NCBI GenBank assembly: GCA_963783305.1 | Contig: CAWAMW010000015.1 | Span: 288,001-352,000 of the forward strand | Reading direction: 5' to 3' | Source: an uncultured Gemmatimonadales bacterium | Lineage (GTDB): Bacteria > Gemmatimonadota > Gemmatimonadetes > Longimicrobiales > RSA9 | Length of the DNA stretch: 64,000 bases | In this document: one piece after another, positions 1,281 through 18,271 of the stretch | How the letters are laid out: the number at the start of each line of letters is the position of its first letter | How positions within the stretch are numbered: position 1 is the first letter of the stretch | Notes under the pieces: model-generated | The model's database searches: none | Seen by the model: the letters and a program-made list of their open reading frames with translations, nothing else | Told to the model about the DNA's origin: nothing | Program-made: the position numbers and the translations under genes

Positions 1281-3299
1281 TCACCCGCCGATCCGTACTT
1301 CCCGCTCTACGCGTCCGCCGCGGGTGCTGAGGACCTCCACCGTCAGGTCGAACGGGTCGGTTTCCGCCGGCACCCGGACTCGGAACGTGGCCGTGGCCGT
1401 CTCCGCGGGGTCGAGCCAGCCGAGGTCGACGGTCTTGTCGCGGAGCGCGGGCGTGGTGATCTCGGCGGCGGGGTCGTCGCCCTCGGTGAGCTCCTCCGGC
1501 AGCTCCAGCCGGACGCGGTCGGGGCGAACGATCTTGACCAGCTGCGCCTGCCGGAGCGCCGTGGGCAGCCGGCCGGCGTTCCGGATGGTCACGTTGATCT
1601 CCCAGGTGACGCTGTCGGCCGACCCGCCGGCCATACGCACCACGCCTACGTCGGCGATCTCGACCCGCGGCAGGTGCTTGGCCATCTCGAGGTTGAAGAG
1701 CGCCTGCTTCTCGACCCAGCCGCCCATCTGGTCGGCGGGGCCGTTCTGGCTGAAGAACTTGGGGTGGAACCCGCCCATCTCCACCGCGCCCAGCGTGGGG
1801 TGCTGGAACGGCTCCCACTCCCGGAACCCGCGGCCGCCGTTGGACTCATCGTCCCAGACCAGGGCGTCGAAGGAGTCCAGGATCCCGTCGCCGTTGTAGT
1901 CCTCCATGGCGCCGCCGTTCCAGAGCTCGTCGCCGTACCAGATGGCGCCGTAGTAGAAGTAGCCGAAGTCGGGGCCGTGGCCGAAGAGGGGCGCGGGCTC
2001 GGTGGGCTCGCCGGACCAGGGGCTCACGGGGTAGCGGGTCATGTACGTCTCGTACACGTCGCCGGCCCAGGGGTAGTGCGTGATGGAGAGCCCCACGCTG
2101 TCGAAGTACTCGTAGAGCGCCAGGTCCTCCGGGTACATGCGCTCCTCCGAGCCCGACGTGGACGGCGGGCGCAGGTGCATGGGCACGCGCGTGTCCATGG
2201 AGTTGGCGACGGAGACGTGCGGCCGCTGGAGCAGCCACATGACCGTGGCCATGGTCTCCGGCTCGCTCAGCGGGTACGCCCCCGCCCCGGACTGCGTGTA
2301 GCCGCGACCCGTGCGGTCCAGCCCTGTGTCGGGACGCCAGTTCTCCGGGTAGTTCCGGTGCAGGTCCAGCCCGCCGATGCCGTCCTCGTTGTAGTCCCCA
2401 TCGCCGTCATTGTCCACGCCCTCGCCCAGCACCACCCAGTCCCCGTCCTCGTCCGGCCGCGCGCGGCGCATGAGACGCCCGGACCCGTCGCGCTCGTCGA
2501 TCAGGTACTCGGCTTCCATCTCCGCGCCCGGTGAGCCCTCCGGCATGTCGGCCGGCCGGAACCGGATGTCGTAGAGGACACCGTCGCCGTCCAGGTCCTC
2601 CGGTGGGTCCTCGTCCAGGAGGCCGTCGCGGTCGCTGTCGTACGGCCGGACGGTGCTCCGGTTCGCCTGCGCCGTGTGCAGGTAGAGGTTGCTGCCGTCC
2701 GGGTTGTTCTCCGGACGGAGGTAGATCGCGTTGTGGTCGAGCAGCGCGGTGATCTCCGGGTCGTGGTCGTAGCCCTCCAGCAGGTGTCGGATCAGCCAGA
2801 GCACGCTCTCCGACGCCGTCACCTCGCCGCTGTGACGACCGCCCTCGAAGAACGCCGCCGGCTTGTCCAGGTCCGACCCCGTGGCCTCGTTCGTCAGCGT
2901 GACCTGCAGGATCGGACGACCCTCGAAGCTGCGACCCACCTCGTACAGCTCCACCAGCCCCGGGTACCGCTCGTTCCAGCGACGCAGCCACTCGTACATG
3001 ACGTCCGCCGTGTGGTAGCGGTCGAACGTCAGCGACTCCCCCGCCTCGTACTCCACGCCCTCGTGACGCACGCGCGGGAAATAGCTGATGCCGTGGCGGG
3101 TGCCGGACACCGTATACCAGGCGCTGTCGCGCTCCGACTCGGCGACGTACGTCGGGGCCACCGCCGCCATGGATGCCGGCCGGAGCGCGGAGGAGGCCGG
3201 CGCAGGGTCGCCCATGCCGGATTGGGCCGCGCAGGCCGCCGAAATCACGGGAACGGCGAGGATGCTGGCGAGGATCGGGAGACGACGGTGTCTGGACAT
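1281..3299 (-). CDS. M14 family zinc carboxypeptidase, secreted or lipoprotein
   Basis: GGRHSGE zinc motif, NPDG, DLHRNYP, PLSEPET; signal peptide MSRHRRLPILASILAVPVISAAC. Confidence 0.88.
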   Translation of the reverse strand: MSRHRRLPILASILAVPVISAACAAQSGMGDPAPASSALRPASMAAVAPTYVAESERDSAWYTVSGTRHGISYFPRVRHEGVEYEAGESLTFDRYHTADVMYEWLRRWNERYPGLVELYEVGRSFEGRPILQVTLTNEATGSDLDKPAAFFEGGRHSGEVTASESVLWLIRHLLEGYDHDPEITALLDHNAIYLRPENNPDGSNLYLHTAQANRSTVRPYDSDRDGLLDEDPPEDLDGDGVLYDIRFRPADMPEGSPGAEMEAEYLIDERDGSGRLMRRARPDEDGDWVVLGEGVDNDGDGDYNEDGIGGLDLHRNYPENWRPDTGLDRTGRGYTQSGAGAYPLSEPETMATVMWLLQRPHVSVANSMDTRVPMHLRPPSTSGSEERMYPEDLALYEYFDSVGLSITHYPWAGDVYETYMTRYPVSPWSGEPTEPAPLFGHGPDFGYFYYGAIWYGDELWNGGAMEDYNGDGILDSFDALVWDDESNGGRGFREWEPFQHPTLGAVEMGGFHPKFFSQNGPADQMGGWVEKQALFNLEMAKHLPRVEIADVGVVRMAGGSADSVTWEINVTIRNAGRLPTALRQAQLVKIVRPDRVRLELPEELTEGDDPAAEITTPALRDKTVDLGWLDPAETATATFRVRVPAETDPFDLTVEVLSTRGGRVEREVRIGG

Positions 3300-3437
3300 G
3301 GTGTCGGTGGCTCGGGTCGCGTGGCGGGCAGGCTGTCCGGGGAGGTTGGGGCGGGCGGCGCGCCGGGGCAAGGTGCGGGCGACCGCCACCCGCTGTCCCC
3401 GTCCGCCATTCCCCTGCCCCGGCTGCCGACGTATGGA

Positions 3438-4535
3438 ATGGCCATGGCGACCATTATCCGGATACGGGAGGTCGGCGCGGAGATCGAAGTCGTTCCGGCC
3501 GTATACGACCCGGCCGTCGTCGAGCATCTCAGAACGATCCCCGGCCGGCGCTGGAGCGCACCCGGGCGCGCGTGGCTCATCCCCCGCACCGCGCAGGGGC
3601 TCGACACGATCCTCTCCCTCCCCGGCGTGAAAATCGATCTGGACCCGGCGCTCGTCCACCTCGTCCGGCGGCCGTACGATCCCGTGGCGCCTCGGGAGGA
3701 CGCCACGCTCCAGCTCCTGCGAAGGGTATCCGAGGAGCTGCGGCTGCTCCGCTACAGCCCCCGCACGCGCAAGCTCTACCTGGGCCATCTGCGGCGATTC
3801 CTCGAACGCCACCCCGCGGCCGCCCACGACCTGACAGCGGGCACGGTGCGCCGACACCTCCTGGAGCTCGAGGCCGAGAACCGCTCCACCTCCTACCTGA
3901 ACCAGGCCCTGAGCGCCATCCGGTTCGCCGCTAAGCTCCTGGGCGCCACCGTCCAGATCGAGAGCGTCGGCCGACCCAAACGCCCGCGCCACCTGCCCTC
4001 CGTCCTCTCGCCCCAGGACGTTCGCCGCATCCTCAAGGCACCCCGCCATCCCCGCCACCGCCTCGCCCTCACACTCGCGTATTCCGCCGGGCTCCGCGTG
4101 GGTGAACTCGTGCGCCTGCGCGTCGGGGACGTCGATTCCGATCGGCGGCTCATCCACGTCCACGAAGGCAAAGGCCGCAAGGATCGGTACACTCTTCTGG
4201 CCGAAACAACCGCCAGGGCACTCTACCCTTTCCTGGATGGCGCCGATGCGAACGACTATATATTCCCCGGCGCCCGCACCGGACGCCACCTCACCGTTCG
4301 CAGCATCCAGAAAGTCTTCGAGCGAGCACTGCGCGACTCCGGCGTCCAGAAGCACGCCACGATCCACACGCTGAGGCACAGCTTCGCCACGCACCTGCTT
4401 GAAAATGGCGTGAGCGTGCGGCATATTCAGGAGCTTCTCGGCCACAGCAGCCCCAAGACGACCGAGATCTACACCCACATCGCCCAGAGCGACCTGCGCC
4501 GAATCACCAACCCCCTGGACGCACCGCTCGACTGA
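3438..4535 (+). CDS. Integron-like tyrosine recombinase (365 aa): HARP-like N-terminal extension, SAM-like domain and catalytic domain; lacks the IntI-specific insertion
   Basis: YSPRTRKLY, SAGLRVGE (R), GKGRKDR (K), HTLRHSFATHLLE (HxxR), IQELLGHSS (H), TTEIYTH (Y), C-terminal ITNPLD; lies next to a cassette array. Confidence 0.93.
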   Translation: MAMATIIRIREVGAEIEVVPAVYDPAVVEHLRTIPGRRWSAPGRAWLIPRTAQGLDTILSLPGVKIDLDPALVHLVRRPYDPVAPREDATLQLLRRVSEELRLLRYSPRTRKLYLGHLRRFLERHPAAAHDLTAGTVRRHLLELEAENRSTSYLNQALSAIRFAAKLLGATVQIESVGRPKRPRHLPSVLSPQDVRRILKAPRHPRHRLALTLAYSAGLRVGELVRLRVGDVDSDRRLIHVHEGKGRKDRYTLLAETTARALYPFLDGADANDYIFPGARTGRHLTVRSIQKVFERALRDSGVQKHATIHTLRHSFATHLLENGVSVRHIQELLGHSSPKTTEIYTHIAQSDLRRITNPLDAPLD

Positions 4536-4567
4536 AGGGTGGATTTATTTCGCCTCCATCAAACATC

Positions 4568-4648
4568 TTAGCGAACACCCATTCGCCAGTCTCACCCAAA
4601 GTCACTACATCATGAACTGGGTTTCGCTAATCCTTTAGTTAAGCGCCA
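4568..4648 (+). other. Candidate attI-like primary recombination site, crossover near G|TT at 4638
   Basis: CGCTAAT-CCTTTA-GTTAAGCGCC; 4638-4647 is the exact reverse complement of the cassette 1 end (5323-5332) with no repeat body upstream; imperfect inverted repeat TTAGCGAACACCC (4568-4580) / GGGTTTCGCTAA (4619-4630). Confidence 0.75.
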
Positions 4649-5050
4649 TGCGCGCAGATGAAGTCAACTGGAGCTTGGTCAGCGCGAGCCACGGGCATGG
4701 TCGGCTGTCGGAGGTCGCTTGCAGCTGCGTCAGGCGTGCGTTGACAGGACAGAAGCGCGTGGCGGGCCTAGATGGCTTGCCAGACATGCCGGATTCGCGG
4801 CTGACGCGGCATTCGATGCCGGCGAGGTCGGCGCGGAACACGCTGGCACCTGTTCGGACTGCGGTCGCTCGAGTACCGTCGGCCGACGATGCGGACCGGG
4901 CTCGGTGAGCGTTGCGAAGTTTCGAGGACGTTGCGCCTGGAGGTCGCGGAGCGTCGGATCGCGGTCTGGACGCTCCGATGCGTGTGGCGACGCAAGTCAG
5001 CCTGAGCTCCGAACGCCGTGTAGCTGAGCTCGACACGTCGGGGGACGGAA

Positions 5051-5332
5051 GTGAATGTCTTCAGTCCGTGCGGTTCTGACGTTGAATACTGGGTCGATGC
5101 TGAGCCGCCGGTCCTCCGTGCGCTCCGCGAACGGTACACTGAGTTTGGCCTTCCGCCGTACCAGGTCGTCTTCGTAGCGGTGCGCGGGGAGATTGGGCCG
5201 GTGTTGGACTGCGGCTTCTGTACTGAGTACGACGGCAGTTTCAAGGTGGAGGAACTGGTCGAAATGGACTCGCCGGGCACCGGGGAGTGCGAGACCGAGA
5301 TCGGTGGCCACTCAGGGAGAACGGCGCTTAAC
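5051..5332 (+). CDS. Cassette 1 hypothetical protein, probably a lipoprotein with a frameshifted 5' end; the frame runs on into repeat 1
   Basis: EVNVFSPCGSDVEYWV...PYQVVFV...EYDG is protein-like; an upstream frame carries ACGDASQPE. Confidence 0.45.
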
Positions 5333-5481
5333 AAACGGTTGGCGCCTGCGCGGCCTGCGGCCGCTCCGGAGAACCCGCCGCGGCCGTACTGGGCGCTGGT
5401 GAGGGGCGTGAAGTTTCGAAGGCGGTCGCGCGCTGGAGGTTGTCGGAGCGGCGGTTCGCCAACCTGGAAACGTTATACGCC
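5323..5481 (+). repeat. attC-like repeat 1
   Basis: GGCGCTTAAC AAAC GGTTGGCG...CGCCAACC TGGAAAC GTTATACGCC. Confidence 0.92.
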
Positions 5482-5506
5482 AGGTGAACGAGTATTGGGG
5501 GGTGCG

Positions 5507-5947
5507 GTGACTGAGTACGTTCTCAATGGTTGGCGCGTGGAGCACGACGCCGGTGCCACGACAGAAGCGTTGAAGCGAGCTCAGTATCGGGGCCCTGAGA
5601 GCTGTGGGTGCCTGCCCTGCCAGAACTTCGTCGCAATGCGTTCCGAAGCGTTCCCGCGCGAGTTCATGGAACTGCTCGGTGAGCTGGGAATCCCGCCGGT
5701 TTCGGAAGTCGAGGTCTATCACAACGCACGGCTTGAAAACGGGAGGCACTCCTACGGAGGGTGGTTCCACTTCGTAGGAAGGGTTGTCGAGGGGCCGGAC
5801 GGGGTCGTAGATCTGGGCAACGGTTTCCAGTTCTACTTCCGGAACGACGCCCATCTTATCTCGAAGGAGATAACCGAGCGCCCCGTGGCACAGTTGGAAT
5901 TCTACTGTGAGCTGCGCTGGGGAATCGCAGCCCAGGAGGCGCTGTAG
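5507..5947 (+). CDS. Cassette 2 hypothetical protein (CxCxxCxNF and GWFHFVG motifs)
   Basis: GTG start just after repeat 1; ORF fills the cassette. Confidence 0.75.
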   Translation: MTEYVLNGWRVEHDAGATTEALKRAQYRGPESCGCLPCQNFVAMRSEAFPREFMELLGELGIPPVSEVEVYHNARLENGRHSYGGWFHFVGRVVEGPDGVVDLGNGFQFYFRNDAHLISKEITERPVAQLEFYCELRWGIAAQEAL

Positions 5948-5992
5948 ATCGGCCCTTCGGGGGAGGCGGGAGGGTCGGGAAGGGGTTCACCC

Positions 5993-6148
5993 GGCGTATA
6001 ACAAACGGTTGGCGCCTCCGCTCGCTACGCGCGCTCCGGAGAACCCGCCGCGGCCGTCTGGAAGCTGGTGAGGTGAGTGAAGGTTCGAAGGTGCTCGCGC
6101 GCTGGAGGTGTGGCGCGGCGGGTCGCCAACCTGGAAACGTTAAGCGGC
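5993..6148 (+). repeat. attC-like repeat 2
   Basis: GGCGTATAAC...GGAAACGTTAAGCGGC with conserved body. Confidence 0.92.
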
Positions 6149-6157
6149 ATTGGCAAC

Positions 6158-6666
6158 ATGCTCAAAGCCAACTTGAAGTTTAGTCGGGACGAACCAGAAC
6201 AGGTGGCTTTTGGAGATCACCTGCGCTGGGTCGAGTTGTCGCCCGTTGACGTTCGACCAACTAGCGCCTTGGCTAAGCCCTTTGAGGTGTTTGCTGAGTT
6301 AGTGAAGGATTCCGTCATACCGGGATTCATTCATGGCGAAGGACGGTTGGAAGAACACGCCGGCACCGATTCATGGACCGTATCGGCTCGATGCCTTGTC
6401 GGCCGACGATTTCACTTCAGTCCCTCGGACAAGGTTCGACGAAGCCCTCGAGGACTGGCTTGAAGGGGGAGACTGCGCTTCGACTCCGGAGCTCCGATGG
6501 AGGTGAGGGAGAAGGTCAGGTCGATGTTGAGCGCGATCCCCAAAGAAGCGCCGTGTTACGAGCTACAGAAATCGCTTGGACGGAAGCGATCACGAGTTTG
6601 CGTTTGTCCTTTGGGAGTTCAAGGAGTTCTGTTTTCCAGATGAGGCGAATGGTGTGCTCTGGCTAG
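6158..6666 (+). pseudogene. Cassette 3 hypothetical gene, apparently frameshifted
   Basis: ORF from ATG 6158; protein-like segments IHGPYRLDALSADDF and HEFAFVLWEFKEF continue in other frames. Confidence 0.4.
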
Positions 6667-6703
6667 TGGTTTGGGCTGCGGATTAAGGGTGTCGCGCACC
6701 AAC

Positions 6704-6862
6704 GCCGCTTAACAAACGGTTGGCGCCTGCGCGGCCTGCGGCCGCTCCGGAGAACCCGCCGCGGCCGTGCTGGGAGCTGGTGAAGGTTCGTGAAGTTTCG
6801 AAGGCGGTCGCGCGCTGGAGGTATCGGCGCGGCGGGTCGCCAACCTGGAAACGTTAGCCGTC
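6704..6862 (+). repeat. attC-like repeat 3
   Basis: GCCGCTTAAC...GGAAACGTTAGCCGTC. Confidence 0.92.
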
Positions 6863-6881
6863 ATTCCGCGATAGGAACTGC

Positions 6882-7109
6882 ATGAGTGTTCTGCAGAGGC
6901 TTGAGCACAGGCGATGGGTGGTGTGGGTCGCCTGGCCGATTTCGGCTTTAGTTCTCCCGATCGCGATTGTTCGAACAGTTGCCGCAGTCCGAGGTTGGGG
7001 TCTCTACTACGCGTTGGACTTGGGCAAGGCACTGCAGATGGGGATCATCATGTTTGGGCCTCCGGTGTTGTTTGAAGTACTGGTCAGGAAAGGGCGAAAC
7101 AACGGCTAA
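6882..7109 (+). CDS. Cassette 4 small membrane protein
   Basis: Two hydrophobic segments; the TAA stop lies in the TAAC of the next repeat. Confidence 0.7.
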   Translation: MSVLQRLEHRRWVVWVAWPISALVLPIAIVRTVAAVRGWGLYYALDLGKALQMGIIMFGPPVLFEVLVRKGRNNG

Positions 7110-7256
7110 CAAACGGCCGGCGCCTGCGCTCCCTTCGGTCGCTCCGGAGTACCCGGCCGTCAGGCGAGCGGATGGTTGGAAAGAAGTCGAGTCGGCGGTG
7201 CCCAAGAGTTCTGGAGGGGTGGAGGCCGGGTCGCCAGCCTGGAAACGTTATGTGCC
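7101..7256 (+). repeat. attC-like repeat 4 (divergent body)
   Basis: AACGGCTAAC AAAC GGCCGGCG...CGCCAGCC TGGAAAC GTTATGTGCC. Confidence 0.88.
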
Positions 7257-7274
7257 ACACGCGGTGAGGTACGG

Positions 7275-7727
7275 ATGGGCAGCCGAACAGGGATCGGTGC
7301 GGTGACCAAGAGCAGCGTCGTAGCAAATGCCCAGAGGCTTGAAGAGGCATTCGGTTCGTGGCCCTCGTTCCACGATGCCGAGGTCCTCACCATGCGTTTG
7401 GATCGGTCCGGTGCCGTTGGGCCGACCCTGGACGCTCAGGTCTATGTGTTCGAAATGACCTCCGAGGTCGATGCGGCGGGCTTCTTCGTGTTGAAGAACC
7501 AAGTCGTCGTGAGTTTGAGGTTCTCCAATGTCGCTCTGGAGAGACTCCGCTGGTTCAACGAGCAGAACGCTCTCTCAGAACTATTCATTGATGAGATCCC
7601 TGACGAGTCCAACGAGGGCCGAACTCTAGCCGTTCGTTTTGAGTCCAGTTATGGCGTAGAGGCGAGTTTCCGCTGTGGCGCAATTGAGGTTTTGGAGGTC
7701 GAGCCGTATCGACCGGAAAAGCAGTAA
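7275..7727 (+). CDS. Cassette 5 Imm50-family immunity protein
   Basis: FGSWPSFHDAEV, FNEQNAL and FESSYGVEASFRC motifs. Confidence 0.78.
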   Translation: MGSRTGIGAVTKSSVVANAQRLEEAFGSWPSFHDAEVLTMRLDRSGAVGPTLDAQVYVFEMTSEVDAAGFFVLKNQVVVSLRFSNVALERLRWFNEQNALSELFIDEIPDESNEGRTLAVRFESSYGVEASFRCGAIEVLEVEPYRPEKQ

Positions 7728-7749
7728 GGCTGGGGCTTCTGCAGCGTGC

Positions 7750-7906
7750 GGCACATAACAATCGGTTGGCGCCTGCGCGGCCTACGGCCGCTCCGGAGAA
7801 CCCGCCGCGGCCGGGTAGGTGCTGGTGAGGGAGTGGCAGTTTCGAAGGCGGTCGCGCGCTGGAGGTTTCGGCGCGGCGGCTCGCCAACCTGGAAACGTTA
7901 TCTGCC
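7750..7906 (+). repeat. attC-like repeat 5
   Basis: GGCACATAAC...GGAAACGTTATCTGCC. Confidence 0.92.
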
Positions 7907-7930
7907 AGTCAGCACAGTAAGAGAGATCAG

Positions 7931-8116
7931 ATGCTTTGGGACTTGCTTCAGCAGGTGCAGATCGGGCGAACGGAGCGGCACGCCGTAAATGTTGATGAGC
8001 GGCTTGCGGCTCTGGAGCGGCAGTTGGACAGAAACAGCAAGGTCTTGGTCGAGGTGATCAAATACCTTGAGAAGCGGGATGGCCGTGATCTCGACGGCGA
8101 CGGGAAGATCGGCTGA
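7931..8116 (+). CDS. Cassette 6 small coiled-coil protein with a C-terminal DLDGDG motif
   Basis: 61-aa ORF fills the cassette; purine-rich RBS. Confidence 0.72.
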   Translation: MLWDLLQQVQIGRTERHAVNVDERLAALERQLDRNSKVLVEVIKYLEKRDGRDLDGDGKIG

Positions 8117-8139
8117 ACTGCCGTGGTACGGGGCTGACC

Positions 8140-8298
8140 AGCAGATAACAAAGGGTTAGCGCCTCCGCTCGGCTGCGCCGAGCTGCGGAGAACCCGCCGC
8201 GGCCGTCTGGAAGCTGGTAAGCGTTGTGAAGATTCGAAGGCGGTTGCGCGCTGGAGGTTACGGCGCGGCGGGTCGCCAACCTGGAAACGTTATACGCC
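8140..8298 (+). repeat. attC-like repeat 6
   Basis: AGCAGATAAC...GGAAACGTTATACGCC. Confidence 0.92.
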
Positions 8299-8349
8299 AT
8301 TTGGCCACTTGATACCGTCGAGAGGTTCATGGGCTCCTCAGGCGGGAGG

Positions 8350-8862
8350 ATGCGAGGTGAGCTGGTGGCTTTGGGGGTGGCTGTCTTTTGCGCAGCCGGA
8401 TGTGAAGGTCAAGCCGCACCTGTGCCAGAGGTTTCGCGCGAACACCCGGTCATCCCGGTCGATAGCGGCATCGTCAGGATCGAGTCCGGCGGAAGCGTCT
8501 TCCGGATCAACGTTGAAATTGCCGAAACGCGGGAGCAACAGAGCACCGGGCTCATGGAGCGGCGGGCCCTCGCAGCGGACGAAGGCATGTTGTTCCTGTA
8601 CGCCGAGGAGCAAGCCGATTCGGATTCCTTCTACATGTTTCGAACGAGAATTCCACTAGCGATCGCCTTCGCCGATTCAACGGGTCAAATTGTGGCGACG
8701 CGGGAGATGGAGCCCTGCCCTCACCCGGTTGCCGATTGGTGCGAGCAGTACGCCCCTGGGAGTTCGTACCGCTCAGCCCTCGAAGTAAATGGTGGTTACT
8801 TTGACAGCAAAGGCATCGGTGTCGGGGACCGAATCGTTCTTGAAAAGAGGTTCGGGCAGTGA
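8350..8862 (+). CDS. Cassette 7 DUF192-family lipoprotein
   Basis: VEIAET...GLMER...EGMLF...FYMFRTRIPLAIAF...ALEVNGG; lipobox AAGC. Confidence 0.88.
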   Translation: MRGELVALGVAVFCAAGCEGQAAPVPEVSREHPVIPVDSGIVRIESGGSVFRINVEIAETREQQSTGLMERRALAADEGMLFLYAEEQADSDSFYMFRTRIPLAIAFADSTGQIVATREMEPCPHPVADWCEQYAPGSSYRSALEVNGGYFDSKGIGVGDRIVLEKRFGQ

Positions 8863-8875
8863 AAGAGGGCCAAAC

Positions 8876-9032
8876 GGCATATAACAAACGGTTGGCGCCT
8901 CCGCTCGCTGCGCGAGCTCCGGAGAACCCGCCGCGGCCGTCTGGGAGCTGGTGAGGGGCGTGCGGTTTCGAAGGTGATCGCGCGCTGGAGGTTGTGGCGC
9001 GGCGGGTCGCCAACCTGGAAACGTTAAGCGCA
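8876..9032 (+). repeat. attC-like repeat 7
   Basis: GGCATATAAC...GGAAACGTTAAGCGCA. Confidence 0.92.
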
Positions 9033-9041
9033 ATTCCGGAC

Positions 9042-9365
9042 ATGAAAACTGCTTGGGTTCTGATCGTGGGTGGCCTGCTCCTCATCGTAGGGGCTTACGC
9101 TGCCTGGAAGAACCAGATGGACTGGGGCCTTCGTGAGTGCTGTAATACAGGATCGATCGGGCCTGATCTACTCATGTTCGGAATGCCATTCCTAATCGGA
9201 GCGCTCTTGTTCTGGTCGGGTTGGGGTTGGCGGCAGTGCGTGCGTGGCGGCGAGATTCGAGGATACTGTAAGGCAGACGCCGGAACTGCGCTTAACAAAC
9301 GGTTGGCGCCTGCGCGGCCTGCGGCCGCTCCGGAGAACCCGCCGCGGCCGTCTGGGAGCTGGTGA
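9042..9365 (+). CDS. Cassette 8 small membrane protein (stop falls inside repeat 8)
   Basis: MKTAWVLIVGG..., two hydrophobic segments. Confidence 0.6.
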   Translation: MKTAWVLIVGGLLLIVGAYAAWKNQMDWGLRECCNTGSIGPDLLMFGMPFLIGALLFWSGWGWRQCVRGGEIRGYCKADAGTALNKRLAPARPAAAPENPPRPSGSW

Positions 9366-9444
9366 AGGTTCGTGAGGTTTCGAAGGCGGTCGCGCGCTGG
9401 AGGTATCGGCGCGGCGGGTCGCCAACCTGGAAACGTTAAGCGCC
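9287..9444 (+). repeat. attC-like repeat 8
   Basis: TGCGCTTAAC...GGAAACGTTAAGCGCC. Confidence 0.92.
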
Positions 9445-9491
9445 ATGCTCGACTGTCTGCCCGGGGTGCGATGGTCTCGGAGTGGAGGGCG

Positions 9492-9806
9492 ATGAGGAAG
9501 GTTTATTGGACTGCGTACGCCCGGGGCGATCACTACCTAGCTACTCAACAGGTGCTCGATCGGATCAGCGCGTGGGGTATTCTAGCCCAGGTGAATCGGT
9601 ATTCAGACCTGATGGTCAGTGCGGTGGTCGAGGTCGCGGAGGAACGTCTCGGACCCCTGCTTGCCGCGCTTGAAGAAATTGTTGCAGTCGAGCAGGTGGA
9701 AGATCAGGTAGTGGGCCCAGACCACCCCTGCATGGTCTACTTGAACGTGCGCATGCAGGACGGCAAAGGCGATCTGAGTATCGAGACACCGGCTGTGCCC
9801 GGCTAG
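9492..9806 (+). CDS. Cassette 9 hypothetical protein
   Basis: GGAGGG RBS then ATG; ends GKGDLSIETPAVPG. Confidence 0.72.
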   Translation: MRKVYWTAYARGDHYLATQQVLDRISAWGILAQVNRYSDLMVSAVVEVAEERLGPLLAALEEIVAVEQVEDQVVGPDHPCMVYLNVRMQDGKGDLSIETPAVPG

Positions 9807-9832
9807 GGAGCGTGAGCCCGAGGTGGTCGCAC

Positions 9833-9989
9833 GGCGCTTAACAAACGGTTGGCGCCTGCGCGGCCTGCGGCCGCTCCGGAGAACCCGCCGCGGCCGTCTG
9901 GAAGCTGGTGAGGGTCGTGAAGTTTCGAAGGCGGTCGCGCGCTGGAGGTTTCGGCGCGGCGGGTCGCCAACCTGGAAACGTTAACCGCC
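9833..9989 (+). repeat. attC-like repeat 9
   Basis: GGCGCTTAAC...GGAAACGTTAACCGCC. Confidence 0.92.
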
Positions 9990-10050
9990 ATGTTCCGCTC
10001 GAGGCTTCTGTAGCAGATTAGGGTAGAGAATTCTACGTAGGGGGTCGCCC

Positions 10051-10275
10051 ATGTCTAATGTGCCAATCGAAGAGCTTCTGAAGCTGTCTGTTGCGGAGCG
10101 GATTCAGTTGGTGGAGGACCTGTGGGACAGCATCGCTGCGGACGCCGACGATTTCCCGCTGACTGACGCGCAAAAGGCGGAGTTGGACCGCCGGCTGGAA
10201 GAGCACGAGGCGGACCCAGGCTCCGCAATACCCTGGGCAGAGGTTCGGGAGCGGCTTTACAAGAAGTACGGGTGA
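10051..10275 (+). CDS. Cassette 10 addiction-module antitoxin (TIGR02574-type)
   Basis: LSVAERIQLVEDLWDSI...ELDRRL...IPWAEV. Confidence 0.9.
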   Translation: MSNVPIEELLKLSVAERIQLVEDLWDSIAADADDFPLTDAQKAELDRRLEEHEADPGSAIPWAEVRERLYKKYG

Positions 10276-10568
10276 ATCGCCGGTTTGAAGTCCGACCGCA
10301 GGCGGACGCGGAGCTCGATGAGGCGGCCGCCTGGTACGCAGCTCGATCGCGGGGACTCGGAGCAGAATTCGTTCGGGTGATTGATGCAGCGTTCGCGTCG
10401 ATCGAGAGGAATCCGCGGCAGTTTCCGGTCGTGTACAAGGACTTCCGGAGGGCCGTCGTCCGGCGCTTTCCATATGCAATCCTATTTACCGTATCGGAAC
10501 CCGAGATCGTCATTTGGTCGGTCTTCCACTCCCGGCGTGATCCGAAGCGGTGGCAGAGCCGCGGTTGA
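10272..10568 (+). CDS. Cassette 10 RelE/ParE-family toxin
   Basis: AELDEAAAWY...GLGAEF...RRFPYAI...VFHSRRDP; GTGA overlap with the antitoxin. Confidence 0.9.
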   Translation: MNRRFEVRPQADAELDEAAAWYAARSRGLGAEFVRVIDAAFASIERNPRQFPVVYKDFRRAVVRRFPYAILFTVSEPEIVIWSVFHSRRDPKRWQSRG

Positions 10569-10593
10569 TAGCCTCTGGAGGCTGGCAGAACAC

Positions 10594-10750
10594 GGCGGTT
10601 AACAATCGGTTGGCGCCTGCGCGGCCTGCGGCCGCTCCGGAGAACCCGCCGCGGCCGTGTTGAAGCTGGTAAGGGGAGAGGTGTTTCGAAGGCGGTCGCC
10701 CGCTGGAGGTTTCGGCGCGGCGGGTCGCCAACCTGGAAACGTTATGCGCC
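10594..10750 (+). repeat. attC-like repeat 10
   Basis: GGCGGTTAAC...GGAAACGTTATGCGCC. Confidence 0.92.
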
Positions 10751-10812
10751 ATTGCACCGCTGGGCGTACGGCTGGTGAGGATCGTCAGGAGAGACCAAGC
10801 TCAAGGGACGTG

Positions 10813-11970
10813 ATGCCGCGAGAAAAGCAGTGCAACGTGGTTTTGGACGCGAACATCCTCGTGGCCGATGTTTGGATGGCGGGCCGGAGCTTCTCCTATC
10901 TGAGGCGTCATCGATTTCTTGAGCATCGACCGGTAGTGCCTCACGTCGCGTACTTGGAGACGCGAAACCAGCTGAAGTTGAGAGCAGAAGCGCTGATCGC
11001 TCACCGAACGGCCGAGGAAGGTGGTTCCCACGGCAACACCGTTCGGCTACGGCGGCTCTTCAATTGTGAGGATTGTCCGACTCCGGAGCATTGGGATGTC
11101 GATCGAGCTGCGTACAGAAATGGGACGATTTTGCTTCTGGGGGTCGCTGGACGAGTTCGGCGGGATGGTCCTCGACGCGCCCGACGTCGAGATCAGCGAA
11201 ATTACTAACCGTTCTATCGCCCGGAAGCGCCGCATTTTCGCGCGGTGATAAAGGTGTTTCAGGGATACCTCTCATCTGGCTCGGGACGCTCGAATTGGCT
11301 ACACCCGGATTGGTCGTGTCTCATTCGTCACTGCCAGATACCAATGACTTCTGTTGACAAGGGCGGGGTGGAACCGCATCCAGAAATAGTCAGCCGAAGT
11401 GGCGGAGCGGACTGGCGGCGAATTGGAAAATGTTGTTTCACAAGTCCTTGGACGACTTCATTGCCCACTTCGAGTTCTGATCGGTGCCGCGAGTTCGGAG
11501 GCCCTCCAGAGAGCGCTGATCTCGAAAGCACGTTCTCTGGCTTCGACGTTTGGGATTGGCTCGAATCCGAGTTCCCTCGCATTTTCGGCGGCGGAGATGA
11601 ACTTGACATGGTCCAATGGGCCGGCTTTCCGACCCCCGCCTGAAGCGCCGGTTCTCCACAGCGTAGAGCAACTCATTAGCCTGGACATCGCGCCGGGTCA
11701 AGTATCTTCATGAAGACGTGTACCGGTGTGTACTGTGATTTTTCCTTCGTTGGCAATTTCGAGGCTTCGATCGGCTGACTATGACGCGGACTCTGTAGTT
11801 CATCCGAATCAACGCACATGGAAGCGACGAAAGCGATCCTTTCTGGACTGAGGTCGGCCTTCAGGGAGTCGGCACCTGTCGCTAATAGCAATAGATCTCG
11901 ATGTGCGAACGCAAGCTGTTGAGGCCTTACTTCTACCGCAGCCGCTGGAGCACTGGAAGACCTATGAGGG
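10813..11970 (+). pseudogene. Cassette 11 PIN-like domain protein, multiply frameshifted; 3' end approximate
   Basis: VVLDANILVAD...VVPHVAYLE N-terminus; RSIARKR, GDKG and LIWLGTLE segments in successive frames. Confidence 0.55.
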
Positions 11971-12058
11971 AGCGATTCAACGCCTGGAGCAGGTGAGGAA
12001 CGAAGTGGAGGACGCGAGGACAGCATTTTCAGAGGGTTTGAATCAGGATGGGAGCAAC

Positions 12059-12217
12059 GGCGCCTAACAAACGGTTGGCGCCTGCGCGGCCTGCGGCCGC
12101 TCCGGAGAACCCGCCGCGGCCGTCTGGAAGCTGGTGAGGGTTCGTGAGGTTTCGAAGGCGGTCGCGCGCTGGAGGTTATCGGCGCGGCGGGTCGCCAACC
12201 TGGAAACGTTATCTGAA
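12059..12217 (+). repeat. attC-like repeat 11
   Basis: GGCGCCTAAC...GGAAACGTTATCTGAA. Confidence 0.92.
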
Positions 12218-12234
12218 ACCCCTTAGGAAAGCGG

Positions 12235-12657
12235 ATGGCTGAGACTGACGGTGGGGAAATCTGGTTCCTGAATCGTGGCCTCGTCGTGCTGCGGCCGAAG
12301 CAGCCGTTCGTCGACTGGGTGCGGGAAGCGGATCCGGGACCGGGACCGCCAGTGAGTGAGGAGGTCGCGGGGAAGGCGGTGGAGGCGTTCCTGATCCCGC
12401 AGTTCGATATGACCCCGGATTCGGAAGCGTGGATCCGGGACAATTTCGATCTGATGTTCGAGATCGCTCTGGACAGCTGGTATACGGAGCCGGCGTTATG
12501 GCCGAAGAACCGGGACTGGAAGGAGTTCAACCGCTGGTTCAATGTGGAACTCATTGACGTGGCCTGGGATCTCGTGAATCAGCCACTTTCGAGCGAGCCG
12601 CCGCAGGGTCCAGCAGATCGGGCGGGTGGGAACGGGGCTTCAGATAACAACCGGTGA
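12235..12657 (+). CDS. Cassette 12 conserved hypothetical protein
   Basis: NRGLVVLRPKQPFVDW...FEIALDSW...LWPKNRDWKEFNRWF; AGGA RBS. Confidence 0.8.
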   Translation: MAETDGGEIWFLNRGLVVLRPKQPFVDWVREADPGPGPPVSEEVAGKAVEAFLIPQFDMTPDSEAWIRDNFDLMFEIALDSWYTEPALWPKNRDWKEFNRWFNVELIDVAWDLVNQPLSSEPPQGPADRAGGNGASDNNR

Positions 12658-12797
12658 GCGCCTGCGCTCCCTTCGGTCGCTTCGGAGTACCCCGCTCAAG
12701 AACATGGTGCCGATCGGGGCTGCGGGTAGTTTCGGAAGGGAGCGGCGCCTGGTGAGGTGGCGGAAGCGGGGTCGCCAACCTGGAAACGTTAAGCGCA
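12639..12797 (+). repeat. attC-like repeat 12 (divergent body)
   Basis: TTCAGATAAC...CGCCAACCTGGAAACGTTAAGCGCA. Confidence 0.88.
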
Positions 12798-12849
12798 ATC
12801 ACTTCCGGATAGCGGGTGCCGAGAGCCGGAGTAAACTGGGGAGTCAGAT

Positions 12850-13203
12850 ATGGACTGGCGTTTGATGATGATGGCCGGAATGGCGCTGCTGATCATGATC
12901 TGGTTCGGCATGGATGCATATCTACGAATCAGGGCCCTTTCGCGTGGGGTAGCGCTGGAGGATCAGGGGGCGGCGAGTGTCTCCCATGTGTATGTGGTCG
13001 CGGCGTGTCGGATCACTGTAGTACTCGGAGTTCCGGCCTTCGTGATCGCGTACGGCGCCGGGGCGGACATCATGTGGGCTGTGGCGGGTCCTCCGGTCGT
13101 CCTCCTCACTTGCGGCTTCGTTGAGTGGGGGACAACGCGTTGGGTCTTCGATCATGATCGACAACAAGCTGGCAGTGTGGACCATAAGCGTCTTGGTGGG
13201 TGA
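12850..13203 (+). CDS. Cassette 13 membrane protein
   Basis: Three hydrophobic segments, GGGGAG RBS, stop just before the repeat. Confidence 0.72.
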   Translation: MDWRLMMMAGMALLIMIWFGMDAYLRIRALSRGVALEDQGAASVSHVYVVAACRITVVLGVPAFVIAYGAGADIMWAVAGPPVVLLTCGFVEWGTTRWVFDHDRQQAGSVDHKRLGG

Positions 13204-13204
13204 C

Positions 13205-13362
13205 TGCGCTTAACAACTGGCTGGCGCCTACGCGGCCTACGGCCGCTCCGGAGTAACCGCCGGCATCCGGCGAGGTGGTGGTGAGGGGCGGGAAGTTTCG
13301 AAAGTTCGCGAGTTGGTGAGGTCGTGGAGCGGCGGTTCGCCAGCCTTTGAACGTTATGAGCC
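13205..13362 (+). repeat. attC-like repeat 13 (divergent body)
   Basis: TGCGCTTAAC AACT GGCTGGCG...CGCCAGCC TTTGAAC GTTATGAGCC. Confidence 0.88.
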
Positions 13363-13390
13363 ATGCCCGACGGCAGGGGAGTGAGAGCAA

Positions 13391-13645
13391 ATGATGAGGC
13401 TTCGCCCTGACTTGCTGGTGGTCTTTGCCGTGGTAGCGGCAACAATCACGATGTTCGCGCTATTGCGGTTTTCGGACTGGGAGCGGACCACGGTGGTCGG
13501 GGTTTCGTCGTTAGTCATTGTGATCCCCCTGCTCATCAACAGCCAGCTTGTGCTAGGACGGAAACGCGCCCGTTCTGAGGAGCTCATGAGGGAGATCGTC
13601 AGCGAGGGACGCGAGGTCGAGCTAGAACGAAAGGATGGGCCGTGA
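13391..13645 (+). CDS. Cassette 14 small membrane protein
   Basis: Two hydrophobic segments; ORF fills the cassette. Confidence 0.7.
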   Translation: MMRLRPDLLVVFAVVAATITMFALLRFSDWERTTVVGVSSLVIVIPLLINSQLVLGRKRARSEELMREIVSEGREVELERKDGP

Positions 13646-13656
13646 AAGGCGGGCAC

Positions 13657-13666
13657 AGCTCATAAC
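13657..13666 (+). repeat. Terminal half-site; no repeat body after TAAC
   Basis: GCTCATAAC (13658-13666) is the reverse complement of GTTATGAGC (13353-13361). Confidence 0.75.
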
Positions 13667-14030
13667 GCAGCATGCGAGACAGGGGGCGGTGCCACCCAGC
13701 GAAGCGGCTCTGTTGATCGACCGCGTTCTCATGCACGACAACCTGCCCCAGCGGTATGGGACACAGTTCAAAATGGCGTAGGGACGCTGGGTGCTTCATC
13801 CGGTAGAGGATGAGGACGGACTGGAGGAACGGCGGAGATCAATGGGCCTTCCATCCATGGACGAGTACATGCGCATGATGGAGGAAGCGTACGGTGCGCC
13901 CGTTGTAAGGCAGCATAGCGACGGGAAATAGAGAGGGAAACGGTTGAGCCCCTGACCGTGGGCGGCATATTTTGGCGGACGACACGTGATGCAGCAGGTC
14001 CACGGGCCTCGGACCGCAAGGAGATATCGA

Positions 14031-14540
14031 ATGGGCATCGAACGTTACCGCCTCGGGTCCTTCATACGCGCGGGCGCCGTCGGCTTGCTTGTCGTGGGAC
14101 TGGTTGGATGCGGGAAAGGCCAGGGAGACCCGACACAGCCGGAGGTCCATGCGCCCGCTGAGGAGCTCGAGGGGACATGGAGCTGGGTACGGTCCGTCGA
14201 TGTGAACACCCTGGATCTCCACACTCCAGGCGCCGACGATTTCCAGGCAGAGCTTGTCTTCGTCGCCGACTCCGAGCGGGAGGGGAGTTACGTGTACCGG
14301 CGTACGGGAGCCCCGGAGGTAAACGGTCGCTTCGGTATCGGCTCGGAGGATTCCCCCGGGAATGACTTCATCGCCATCGACCACCCCATCGATTTCCTGG
14401 AGAGCCACGCGTGGGTTGTGGCAGGAACGGACAGTCTGTGGCTGGGTGGCGTGTTCGAGAATGGCTACAACTCCCTGTACGCGCGGGTTTCTGCTTCGCC
14501 ATCCCCAGATTCCTCGTTGCCGGCTCAGAAGGGATTGTAA
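14031..14540 (+). CDS. Hypothetical lipoprotein
   Basis: AAGGAG RBS; lipobox LVGC; LEGTWSWVRS. Confidence 0.7.
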   Translation: MGIERYRLGSFIRAGAVGLLVVGLVGCGKGQGDPTQPEVHAPAEELEGTWSWVRSVDVNTLDLHTPGADDFQAELVFVADSEREGSYVYRRTGAPEVNGRFGIGSEDSPGNDFIAIDHPIDFLESHAWVVAGTDSLWLGGVFENGYNSLYARVSASPSPDSSLPAQKGL

Positions 14541-14602
14541 GAGCGAGAAGTATTGGCGCAACGCTGGAACGTCAAGCGCAATTAACGTGAGGAGGCGCGG
14601 TC

Positions 14603-15190
14603 ATGGATAGGAGTCGCTGGATTGGAATCGCTGCGCTGGTGGCCGCCGTCAGTTGTGGCCCGACCTCCGAGGAAGAGCCGATCCGGGCAGAACTACCTGA
14701 GAGCGAGTCCACCGCTGAAGCTCGTGTTGCACCTGTTCAGACGGCGACCGACGCCGGCTGGGAGGTCGACTTCAGCAGCTATGGGCCCGTCCCGCTGGGC
14801 ATCGCATTCATGGAGGCGAATCAGGCGGCCGGAGGCGTGCTCGAGTCTCCAGGGTCAATGGAGGGTTGCGAGACCGTCCATGTGTCGGAGGGGCGGGAGA
14901 GGGTTGGGCTGATGGTCGTTGACGGGCGGATCACCCGTGTCGATGTCTACAACCCTGAGATCACCACGGCACAGGGCGCCAGGATCGGAGACAGCGAGGA
15001 GCAGATCAGAGCCCTATACCCCGAGAGCCTCGAGGTCCGACCTCACAAGTACACGGATGGAAGCTATCTGATCGTCACGCCTCCGGGCGCAGATCGGTTT
15101 CGGCTGGTCTTTGAAACGGCACGAGGGACGGTCCAGACGTTCAGAGCGGGTGTGCTGCCCGAAGTGGAATGGGTAGAAGGGTGCGCCTAG
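14603..15190 (+). CDS. Hypothetical lipoprotein
   Basis: GGAGG RBS; AVSC lipobox; ends HKY...VFET...VEWVEGCA. Confidence 0.8.
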   Translation: MDRSRWIGIAALVAAVSCGPTSEEEPIRAELPESESTAEARVAPVQTATDAGWEVDFSSYGPVPLGIAFMEANQAAGGVLESPGSMEGCETVHVSEGRERVGLMVVDGRITRVDVYNPEITTAQGARIGDSEEQIRALYPESLEVRPHKYTDGSYLIVTPPGADRFRLVFETARGTVQTFRAGVLPEVEWVEGCA

Positions 15191-15529
15191 ACGGCTGTTC
15201 CGGTGGTGAGGTCGCTGTAGGTCCGAAGGTGCTGGAGCCCCGAACCAGCGTTCGGCGGCGCACGGACCTCACTGGTAGTTACGGAAAGGCTTCGCTGATG
15301 GAGACGCGAGACCCGGTGGTTGAGTATCTGGACACGTCGGTTCTATGGTATGGCGAAGGCGATGGACGTGACTCGGATCATCGTGGATGGAGCCCGAGCG
15401 TGTGCCCAGACGCGCTATGAGCTCGAGCCGCCCGGTGGCCGCAGTTTCGAAAGCCACGTCGCCGAAGTGTTGGAGGTGAGCGGCGGCAGGATCACTGCGC
15501 CTGGCATCTACTTCGACAGCGCACCCCTT

Positions 15530-15569
15530 CGCTCCCTTCGGTTGTTGTGGAGTACCCGGCCGGCAGGCG
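15530..15569 (+). repeat. Degenerate remnant of a repeat-4-type body
   Basis: 35/40 identity to 7127-7166 by manual alignment. Confidence 0.75.
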
Positions 15570-15692
15570 GATCGGTGGCTGGGAGTGTGCGCATGCCCGG
15601 AAATCGGACCGTTCGAAAGGTGGCCGCTCGAGATGATCGATCCTACATTCTCACCATCGATAGGCCGATTTGAACCAGCGAGCGGAAGGCAC

Positions 15693-16247
15693 ATGAGCGC
15701 TTCACCCGCGGACCGGCTGAACACGATCCCATTCGCCATAATGGCGGGTGGGTGGCTCGGGCCCCTCCTCATGTTCTGGCTCTACGTCTGGGGGCCGCTT
15801 CGGCCATATTCGTATCCTCCCGGCCGCCTTCTTCCGGGCCCTTCTTTTGCGCTTCTCGTGGTCGGTTGCGCTGCCGTGGGGTGGGCGCTGCCGCGCCGGT
15901 ACTTCCGGATTCACCGGTTCGAACGCACCGGCCGGCTGTACGAAAGGCTCGGCGTCCGCGCGTTCCGCCACGTGGTCCCCGATGGCGACCTCATCAACCG
16001 ATGGGTGCGGCGTTCCATTCCCGGCTACCGGGTGGTCCGGGGCAGGCGTGCGGTCGCGGCTTTCGTGGCCAGGACCGAGCGAAGCGAGCGCGGCCATGCG
16101 GTTCTGCTGATGCTGGGTGTGGTGTCGGCGGCGTACGCGTGGACCCTGGACTGGCGTGTATGGGCGCTGTACCTCACCGCCGGCAACCTCCTGGTCAATC
16201 TCTACCCGATCCTGCTGCAGCGGTACACGCGGAGCCGCCTGCATTGA
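15693..16247 (+). CDS. CrtO-like (glycosyl-diaponeurosporenoate acyltransferase family) membrane protein
   Basis: LYERLGVRAF, ERGH and NLLVNLYPILLQRYTRSRL. Confidence 0.7.
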   Translation: MSASPADRLNTIPFAIMAGGWLGPLLMFWLYVWGPLRPYSYPPGRLLPGPSFALLVVGCAAVGWALPRRYFRIHRFERTGRLYERLGVRAFRHVVPDGDLINRWVRRSIPGYRVVRGRRAVAAFVARTERSERGHAVLLMLGVVSAAYAWTLDWRVWALYLTAGNLLVNLYPILLQRYTRSRLH

Positions 16248-16287
16248 GACATGGCCGTGACAAACCTCGGACGAAACGAGAAACCGG

Positions 16288-16803
16288 ATGATTAGAACAG
16301 GACTGCTTGGTATTCTGCTGGTCCTGTCGGTCGGAGCATGTGCGCACGGCTCCAGCGAGGGGGCGGAGCCAGCGGGCCTGCCGATGTGCGCAGAAGACGT
16401 GGTGGGCGTCCGACCTGAGATGCTTCAAGATCGCAGCGCCTCCGAGATCAAGGAAACGATAGCGTCCCTGGGCTGGATCGCGATCGAGAGCGGCTCCGAG
16501 GTGGTTGCTGTTGATCGCCCCCCCCGATTGGCCAACACGGGGAAAGTGCAACGTGCGCTCGTCAGCCACTTTCCGACTGATCTTCGGGATCGACGGATTG
16601 GCGGGAGCGTCACGTTCTTCGTCTGGCTCGACCCTGAGGGAAACCTGGTCCGCAAGGCGATCGCCAAGGGGTCCCGGTATCCGGCGTTCGACCGGGCGGC
16701 TGCGAATGTCGTCTCCGTCATGGAGTTCAGCCCGGCCGCCACCGAGACGTGTCGCGTGGCCTTCTGGAATGAGCTGGTCGTGAATTTCGAAGCGCACCGG
16801 TGA
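16288..16803 (+). CDS. Lipoprotein with a TonB C-terminal-like domain
   Basis: VGAC lipobox; FP..LR...IGGSV...SRYPAFDRAA...MEFSPA. Confidence 0.72.
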   Translation: MIRTGLLGILLVLSVGACAHGSSEGAEPAGLPMCAEDVVGVRPEMLQDRSASEIKETIASLGWIAIESGSEVVAVDRPPRLANTGKVQRALVSHFPTDLRDRRIGGSVTFFVWLDPEGNLVRKAIAKGSRYPAFDRAAANVVSVMEFSPAATETCRVAFWNELVVNFEAHR

Positions 16804-16835
16804 TGCTGGGGAGGTTCCGTAGGGGGAGTGAGGCC

Positions 16836-17658
16836 ATGGGCTGGAGGTTGAGGCCGTGCGTTGTCGCGGCCGGTGCGATCGTGTTGGGCGTGAGTGCGCC
16901 CGCGGCTGCGCAACCGAATCGCCGGCGAGCGTCATGGAGTTGAATCGTGGTGGGGACTGGGCCCAGGCCGCTTCCCTCGCGGAAGCATTGCTGGCCGAGG
17001 ATCACCCTGCTGGCGCCCAGGCCCGCTGTGAGTTGATGTATCACCTCGCCTACGCACGGGCGCGGCTGGGAGAGGTTGCGGCTGCCCGCTCGGCCATCGG
17101 GGCTTTTGACCAGGAATGCGGCGGAAACGGAGCCAATCACTGGGTCAACCGGGAAGTCGGGCCCCTGCGGGAGGAACTGGGTGAGAGCCCTGCGGTGAGC
17201 ACGTCCGACGGCTTCTGGACGACGGCAGATCCGAGCTCGCTGGGCCTGGATGCGACCATCGTCAGAAAGCATGCAGCACTTTGTGAGCGCACCGGCGCCG
17301 ATGCATGCCTTCTGGTCTATCGTGGCAGGATCGTGCAGGAGTGGTATTCGCGCCGTTACCGCGAGCCGATCTACGCGATGTCCACGACCTCTGGGGTGGC
17401 GAGCGGGTCCTGAGCAGGGAGTGGATCGAACGGTCGACCCGACCCTCGCAGCGGTACAACCGCGACTATGGGCTGCTCTGGTGGCTTCATGATGCGCCGA
17501 AGGGCTACGCAGGGCATGGCCATCTCGACACCAGCCTCCACATCTTCCCCGATCTCCAGCTGATCGCGGTCCGGATGCAGGCTCGACCCCTGGAGAATGA
17601 CCCTGAGGGAACGTATGAAGCTGAAGCCCTCGAGCTCTTCCGCGGGCTCGTGCCCTGA
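16836..17658 (+). pseudogene. Beta-lactamase-fold serine hydrolase, frameshifted and internally deleted
   Basis: LVYRGRIVQEWY...YAMSTT jumps to WGGERVLSREWIERST...YGLLWW in another frame. Confidence 0.6.
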
Positions 17659-17730
17659 GCGGCCGCTGGACCGCATCGTGCGGGCGATCGCGGCCCCACG
17701 ACGTGGATTCACCCCTGCGAGAGGCCCCCG

Positions 17731-18207: not shown

Positions 18208-18271
18208 CGGCAGCGATCATTCCAGGAAGCCGGGGGAATTGTTGGGTTCCGCCGTACGCTGGGCACGACAC

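Follow-up and report, generated by a model that had tools for sequence, protein, structure and literature searches.

A tyrosine recombinase without the IntI insertion adjoins an integron-like cassette array with a fixed A/C mismatch in its cassette ends

Introduction

Can an integron-like cassette array be served by a recombinase that lacks the domain held to be necessary in integron integrases? The question is raised by a window of 64,000 nucleotides (the whole stretch of DNA analysed here) from an uncultured Gemmatimonadales bacterium (GenBank assembly GCA_963783305.1, contig CAWAMW010000015.1, positions 288,001 to 352,000), in which a 365-residue tyrosine recombinase (3438..4535, + strand) lies upstream of an array of gene cassettes (4638-13666) in the same orientation. 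The I2 domain, the insertion specific to integron integrases (IntI), has been described together with single-strand recombination as exclusive to these enzymes, with no known intermediates, in the accessible text of PMC7790495. The recombinase of the window is related to IntI without having this insertion. The two ends of each cassette pair with one another around a fixed mismatch, and this mark accompanies insertion-less enzymes in other genomes as well. The array is likely to be shuffled by the adjoining recombinase acting on folded bottom strands.

Results

Pairing of the cassette ends

The units of the array are delimited by 14 openings that read GTTA and 14 closings that read TAAC, with 13 repeats of 144-147 nt between them. 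When the opening of each unit is compared with its own closing, 79 of 84 bases at positions 5-10 are paired, compared with 41 of 78 for the ends that meet as assembled. Shuffled pairings gave a mean of 48.9 (s.d. 4.1, maximum 73), and none of 100,000 shuffles attained 79. An earlier reading of this DNA from its letters alone (the sequence-only reading) had proposed such private ends, matching at 10/10 in nine units and 9/10 in five, with a poorer match between the two ends of an assembled repeat, and had let the proposal depend on pairing better than that of shuffled cassettes. An exact recount returned the same figures, the examples quoted there (7247/7750 and 12208/12639) were recovered, and the real pairing lies far above the shuffles.

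The pairing is interrupted at position 11, which is A in the left end and C in the right end of all 14 units, the left ends reading GTTA-N6-A and the right ends C-N6-TAAC as had been noticed. Past this mismatch 69 of 84 bases at positions 12-17 are paired (shuffle mean 30.7, maximum 57), and pairing falls to chance level at positions 18-26 (35/126 against 33.3). Each end therefore forms an arm some 15-17 bases long, interrupted by the one fixed mismatch. The sequence-only reading was also correct that C/A on the top strand accounts for four of the five internal mismatches and that the core departs from the classical consensus (GTTRRRY / RYYYAAC), since GTTRRRY fits only five of the 14 left ends. 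Arms of 17 bases have folding energies of -12 to -20 kcal/mol when formed from a unit's own ends and of -3 to -13 when formed with the ends of neighbours. The bottom strand of the own-end arms is the more stable by 0.8-3.8 in 12/12 cases, which is not independent evidence because the wobble itself produces it.

The mark and the enzyme type across genomes

Classical IntI arrays of the same phylum served as a control (80 units at 14 of the 22 loci examined). Across these 80 units each of positions 5-9 is paired in 72-77 cases and position 10 in 36 cases, and wobble-type mismatches at position 11 number one at most. Private ends of nine or more bases are therefore general rather than special to the window. 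R'/R'' pairing has been published, as has an excess of G:T on the bottom strands of attC sites (1.24 against 0.39 per site, in the portion of PMC5027507 that is available). The private ends and the G:T bias are thus not novel in themselves, and the sequence-only reading overlooked the main point, namely that the position-11 mark accompanies a recombinase without the IntI insertion.

This link emerges from a survey in which cassettes were picked on positions 1-9 only, the strand was set by open reading frame (ORF) content and the class was set by the nearest integrase. The insertion-less integrases are represented by 33 loci (the window, metagenome contigs, a plasmid, Bacteroidota genomes and five loci of relatives), which yield 152 unique end pairs; A/C stands at position 11 in 126 of these pairs and in 0/59 cassette ends from IntI arrays at 12 loci. 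Locus L093 was counted as IntI; two duplicates (L073 and L084), a locus with an unclassed enzyme (L187), one with conflicting strand (L203) and the other arrays of the source genome were left out. A further 15 of the 152 pairs have the A/C shifted by one extra right-hand base and two pair normally. The left base is A in 149 of the 152, and positions 12, 13, 14 and 15 are paired in 132, 129, 120 and 105 of them, respectively.

Matches to the enzyme family were found in 19 of 301 genomes of this phylum, array-less relatives included, and in 70 of the 201 Bacteroidota genomes searched. True IntI scores above its cut-off in 124 of the 301, a tally that includes the unpublished genome G157. The array lies on the strand opposite the insertion-less enzyme at L120, L139, L212, L232 and L046, so both orientations exist. 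A shared orientation of integrase and array was rejected as a diagnostic trait, since the IntI arrays of the phylum are also co-oriented.

Several further observations were made in the course of this comparison. In nine IntI arrays (L085, L089, L095, L097, L101, L102, L103, L109 and L111) position 10 is mismatched in 29 of 61 units, and in all 29 left base 11 pairs with right base 10, the left end having an extra base that is A in 23; on the bottom strand this base would probably be a T left unpaired in the outer arm. Another subset of the same arrays (9/61) has A/C at position 12 as its first mismatch. A shortened relative of the recombinase (43% identity over residues 132-361) stands directly before tet(X3) at L059 (12043-14064) and on many Acinetobacter plasmids, and no linked cassette ends were detected around it. 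A more distant insertion-less recombinase is present six times in genome G224 (L030, L034-L038 and L052), once directly behind a true IntI match, and the array there has no A/C at position 11 among the pairs detected; this recombinase is possibly an insertion sequence. IS110 elements and a group II intron lie within arrays of the present type on Bacteroidota plasmids (L060, 19233-23015; L061, 21929-22987).

The recombinase

The recombinase matches PF00589 and PF13495 and has an extra N-terminal domain of about 75 residues. Against TIGR02249, the integron integrase model, it scores 201.5 bits, below the cut-off of 265, with a match confined to model positions 1-178 and 235-314; alignment with the VchIntIA structure 2a3v leaves 16 residues where VchIntIA has 62. 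The catalytic residues R220, K245, H310, R313, H336 and Y345 are intact, with R, K, H, R, H and Y invariant across 91 aligned proteins. Scores against the XerC and XerD models (174 and 168 bits) fall short of the family thresholds of 335 and 330. No true IntI was found in the source genome (96% complete), whose two other recombinase matches are both Xer-like.

An alignment-based structure model was used (pLDDT 91.9), the single-sequence fold being poor (pLDDT 52). The best Foldseek match of this model is 2a3v, and VIA-align gave Z scores of 22.5 for XerA and 21.1 for 2a3v. In a quick tree of 95 rows (in which L018, L020 and L021 carry the label 'other' though they are from array-bearing loci) IntI forms a clade of its own (SH-aLRT 100), with the window recombinase outside it among insertion-less relatives. 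IntI and the insertion-less relatives group together against ten Xer-like rows (SH-aLRT 100), and the deep forks are weakly supported (80-91). The N-terminal domain (window 3438-3660) resembles the N-terminal domain of T4 UvsW (Z 6.9, r.m.s.d. 2.1, 60 residues), which is a lead only, and its matches in Atlas are below 0.9 and unnamed. The domain may be optional, since in several Bacteroidota relatives the match begins only at about profile position 80.

Anatomy of the repeats

The 28 repeats of this phylum group share an ungapped 8-bp inner stem in which every position is paired in 26-28 of the 28, and in 26 of them the right arm of the stem is 2-3 nt further from the core than the left. The commonest distances from the cores in the window are 4 nt and 7 nt (eight links), where a classical site has an unpaired central spacer of 5-6 nt per arm. 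The L'' box of the phylum-group repeats has no extrahelical base, and the sites of IntI arrays mostly need an extra base in the left arm. Such extrahelical bases are what IntI reads in its sites, according to the accessible part of PMC2727003. The repeats are without the extra base and the enzyme is without the insertion; the extrahelical bases are thus absent together with the domain. A longer stem is seen in 69 repeats from other loci, with a recurrent A/C that falls at one position in 33 of them. We set aside the idea that T11 is flipped into the pocket in which IntI receives its extrahelical T, because a segment immediately ahead of the HL motif, which we take to have a role in that pocket, is also about 10 residues shorter.

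Crossover boundary and compensatory change

The base before GTT is C in all 86 internal sites and A in 14 of 19 candidate first sites, and position 4 pairs with the unit's own far end in 86/86 cases against 63/86 for the end of the neighbour. Duplicated cassettes at L001, L225 and L045 have 0-1 shared base 5' of GTT, and the copies at L040 are identical through their own repeat up to the next GTTA. Because the base before GTT, position 4 and the limits of the duplicated cassettes agree, comparison of the sequences places the crossover within GTT, as in integrons. The sequence-only reading had cassettes moving as circles with crossover at or next to GTTA; their mobility and a boundary in the GTT triplet are upheld by these comparisons, and the circular form is one that we infer.

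Between cassette 10 and its 71% identical homologue in genome G167, position 9 has changed at both ends (C:G against G:C). Thirteen copies of one 200-bp cassette are interleaved in one array at L040 (genome G270, 7838-18872), and their position 6 is G:C in eight, A:T in four and A/C in one. These comparisons support the view that end pairing is preserved by compensatory change.

The attI-like platform and other arrays of the genome

An attI-like insertion site ending in A followed directly by GTT lies at 4608..4640 (+ strand), the first GTT being about 100 nt past the recombinase stop. A putative attI site with GTT thus stands beside the integrase gene, as in classical integrons, and similar candidate first sites lie 29-230 nt past the recombinase stop at 19 loci. 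Their consensus 5' of GTT carries CG at -13/-12, followed by TATA-like bases from -9 to -6, which we take to be reminiscent of the XerC half of dif. A weak promoter-like site that faces the array (4399..4427, + strand; 9/12 consensus matches) lies in the 3' part of the recombinase gene; one such site was found against 0.1 in shuffles, and it may possibly be the cassette promoter (Pc).

The repeat of the window array also occurs in further arrays of the source genome (C16:793900-801000, designated L054; C12:269-1249; C14:7783-8296). The array on contig C16 has its own attI-like site, an 89% identical copy at its head, with no recombinase match nearby, and contains paralogues of two cassettes of the window.

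The array and its cargo

All units and repeats lie on the + strand. Unit 1 (4638..5332) is probably two decayed cassettes separated by a decayed repeat copy (~4829-4962). The right part of the unit has a paralogue among the cassettes of C16. Its 10/10 end match is likely to be a coincidence, since the unit is probably double, its end type is common and its pairing at 12-17 is poor. The 13 attC-like repeats span 5329..13356, each running from TAAC to GTTA (5329-5475, 5999-6142, 6710-6856, 7107-7250, 7756-7900, 8146-8292, 8882-9026, 9293-9438, 9839-9983, 10600-10744, 12065-12211, 12645-12791 and 13211-13356).

The ends of cassette 2 (5472..6002) pair at positions 1-10 and 12-18 and those of cassette 3 (6139..6713) at 1-10 and 12-15; those of cassettes 4 (6853..7110) and 11 (10741..12068) match at 9/10. 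Cassette 5 (7247..7759) encodes a protein of the Imm50 immunity-protein family, cassette 7 (8289..8885) a DUF192 protein and cassette 10 (9980..10603) an antitoxin and ParE-family toxin pair. Cassette 6 (7897..8149) has a small ORF, with a decayed relative at the head of the C16 array. The remaining units are cassettes 8 (9023..9296), 9 (9435..9842), 12 (12208..12648), 13 (12788..13214) and 14 (13353..13666), the last without a recognisable repeat after its right end. A Pfam scan of 16 array and flanking ORFs assigned no family to 12, the rest being the Imm50, DUF192, antitoxin and ParE toxin proteins. A decayed repeat end and an opening with A at position 11 lie at 14559-14583, ahead of an ORF at 14603-15190, which suggests older cassettes past 13666. 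An Rfam scan of window positions 3000-16000 gave no match.

Discussion

We favour, with moderate confidence, a mechanism in which the neighbouring insertion-less recombinase recombines hairpins of the bottom strand, and in which that strand is marked by the wobble and the lopsided loop. Each cassette, made up of a gene and the repeat downstream of it, would exit as a circle, which would unite its own two ends in an outer arm some 15 bp long. This arm would be closed on the bottom strand by a T:G wobble where the top strand has the A/C mismatch, and the wobble and the lopsided 4/7-nt inner loop would replace the flipped-out bases of attC as marks of strand and orientation; the A/C mark is likely to tell the enzyme which folded strand to cut. 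The well-paired circle would integrate readily at the attI-like site, and sites in the array, paired with the end of a neighbour, would be poorer substrates, such that capture would be favoured over loss.

Several points weigh against this mechanism. Neither recombination nor a circle nor expression was observed, and no circle junction was present among the 15 joints listed (assembled contigs, four runs). Deletion of I2 inactivates IntI1, and I2 is held to be necessary for hairpin substrates, in the accessible text of PMC7790495. Whole repeats fold weakly (bottom-strand z of -2.6, +1.0, -0.9 and -1.9), the top strand is the lower in energy for 4/4 whole repeats folded, and the inner stem of the 28 phylum-group repeats has no fixed wobble. 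Linked cassettes were found in only 17 of 40 Bacteroidota regions (mostly those downstream of the recombinase), and several family members have no array within 9 kb downstream. The locus counts are not independent because kin are included, and the set behind the position-4 test was partly pre-selected.

The same facts could be read as Xer-like recombination on double-stranded sites, with the matching ends a trace of cassette making or repair by fold-back copying and A11 and C11 separate protein-contact bases. This would suit an enzyme that lacks I2 and scores near archaeal XerA, the weak folding of the repeats and the constancy of A11 and C11 whichever ends meet (83/86 as assembled). Arm-to-arm copying ought, however, to remove the mismatch at position 11, while compensatory changes continue among the copies of one cassette at L040, wobble intermediate included, and repeats of unrelated sequence share one stem geometry; we regard this account as improbable, though deserving of attention. 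We also think it distinctly unlikely that the top strand is the hairpin substrate and the A/C mismatch an unpaired feature read by the enzyme. The energies of the four whole repeats do point to the top strand, and inner-stem position 16 is G/T on that strand in 13 of the 28 phylum-group repeats, but the arm mismatches other than position 11 favour G:T on the bottom strand (4/5 in the window, 34 against 17 in the cross-locus set), and the GTT/AAC core and cassette polarity are as in integrons, which use the bottom strand (PMC5027507, in its available portion). The choice of the bottom strand as folded substrate in the sequence-only reading therefore finds support in the arms and is opposed by the whole-repeat folds.

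On a published view (PMC4889954), the array would be a cluster of ordinary attC sites on which a true IntI, lost or left unassembled, acts in trans, and the neighbouring recombinase would be incidental. The frequency of IntI in the phylum (124 of 301 genomes) and a source genome that is 96% complete leave room for such an enzyme. Yet site type tracks enzyme type over 45 loci in at least two phyla, the first sites stand close behind the recombinase gene at 19 loci, and the extra L-box base, which IntI reads, is missing from the repeats, all of which make service in trans very unlikely. It is scarcely credible that A11 merely reflects start codons or ribosome-binding sequence with no role in recombination: ATG occupies positions 11-13 in four of the 14 left ends, but the other ten are without it, the far end is just as constant in its C11, and pairing at bases 12-15 is seen on either side.

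A bolder proposal, on the doubtful side in our judgement, is that these loci form a second, widespread and possibly older class of integron, which would use folded single strands without I2 or flipped-out bases by reading the T:G wobble and the lopsided loop, classical IntI having arisen inside this radiation. If so, the insertion-less radiation would be the missing intermediate between Xer and IntI, invisible to searches based on IntI or attC. A natural enzyme without I2, with hairpin-like sites and one invariant base pair, makes the question of I2 exclusivity directly testable. IntI-based tools would call no integron in the 70 Bacteroidota genomes that match the enzyme family, and the position-11 rule is a simple means to find and orient such cassettes. 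The mark and its tie to insertion-less enzymes appear to be new, whereas private ends and the bottom-strand G:T bias are not; neither the position-11 mark nor the site structure of insertion-less enzymes was the subject of any paper listed by full-text search, with subscription papers mostly outside its reach.

Comparison with known systems

The closest system in print is rAID-1 of gut Bacteroidales, in which an XerD-like recombinase is followed by co-oriented genes with repetitive integron-like intergenic motifs (Ross et al., 10.1101/471110). The comparison covers its description in outline; its motif figure and supplements may bear on novelty. Its criteria are a 5' XerD-like recombinase more than 44% identical to BF9343_RS08045, cargo of at most 41% GC and orphan immunity genes. 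Here too two or more co-directional genes lie downstream, and one cassette encodes Imm50. In that description rAID-1 is reported only in Bacteroidales with low-GC cargo, whereas the contigs here have 65-69% GC and the array is GC-rich. Its cargo is rich in orphan immunity genes; the scan of 16 ORFs here gave one Imm50 and 12 without a Pfam family. The same outline gives no site structure, crossover or end pairing.

Some members of the 'integron-like' tyrosine recombinase subgroup of Smyshlyaev et al. (PMC8138268) resemble the present enzyme in that their insertion is not fully conserved; the accessible part of that paper calls the insertion essential for integron function and does not link members that lack it with cassette arrays. 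Xer recombinases (XerC/D and archaeal XerA) likewise have a short catalytic domain without the insertion and give high sequence and fold scores, but the window recombinase is under the XerC and XerD cut-offs, and the tree sets it with IntI, away from the two Xer-like genes of its genome.

Classical integrons (class 1 and Vibrio cholerae VchIntIA, co-oriented ones included) share with this locus a tyrosine recombinase beside an insertion site, tandem co-oriented one-gene cassettes, imperfect inverted repeats, an AAC/GTT core with the boundary in GTT, private ends of nine or more bases, toxin-antitoxin cargo and, according to the available portion of PMC5027507, the bottom-strand G:T bias. Classical integrons recombine the folded bottom strand by a single strand exchange with replicative resolution, a process for which the folding energies here are mixed. 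The locus differs from them in having no IntI insertion and no extra inner-stem base, in its lopsided 4/7-nt loop, in an outer arm that runs to about 15 bp and has an invariant A/C at position 11 (absent from all 59 IntI cassette ends) and in a core that seldom fits GTTRRRY. It is not a classical integron by three tested features, yet it is integron-like in anatomy.

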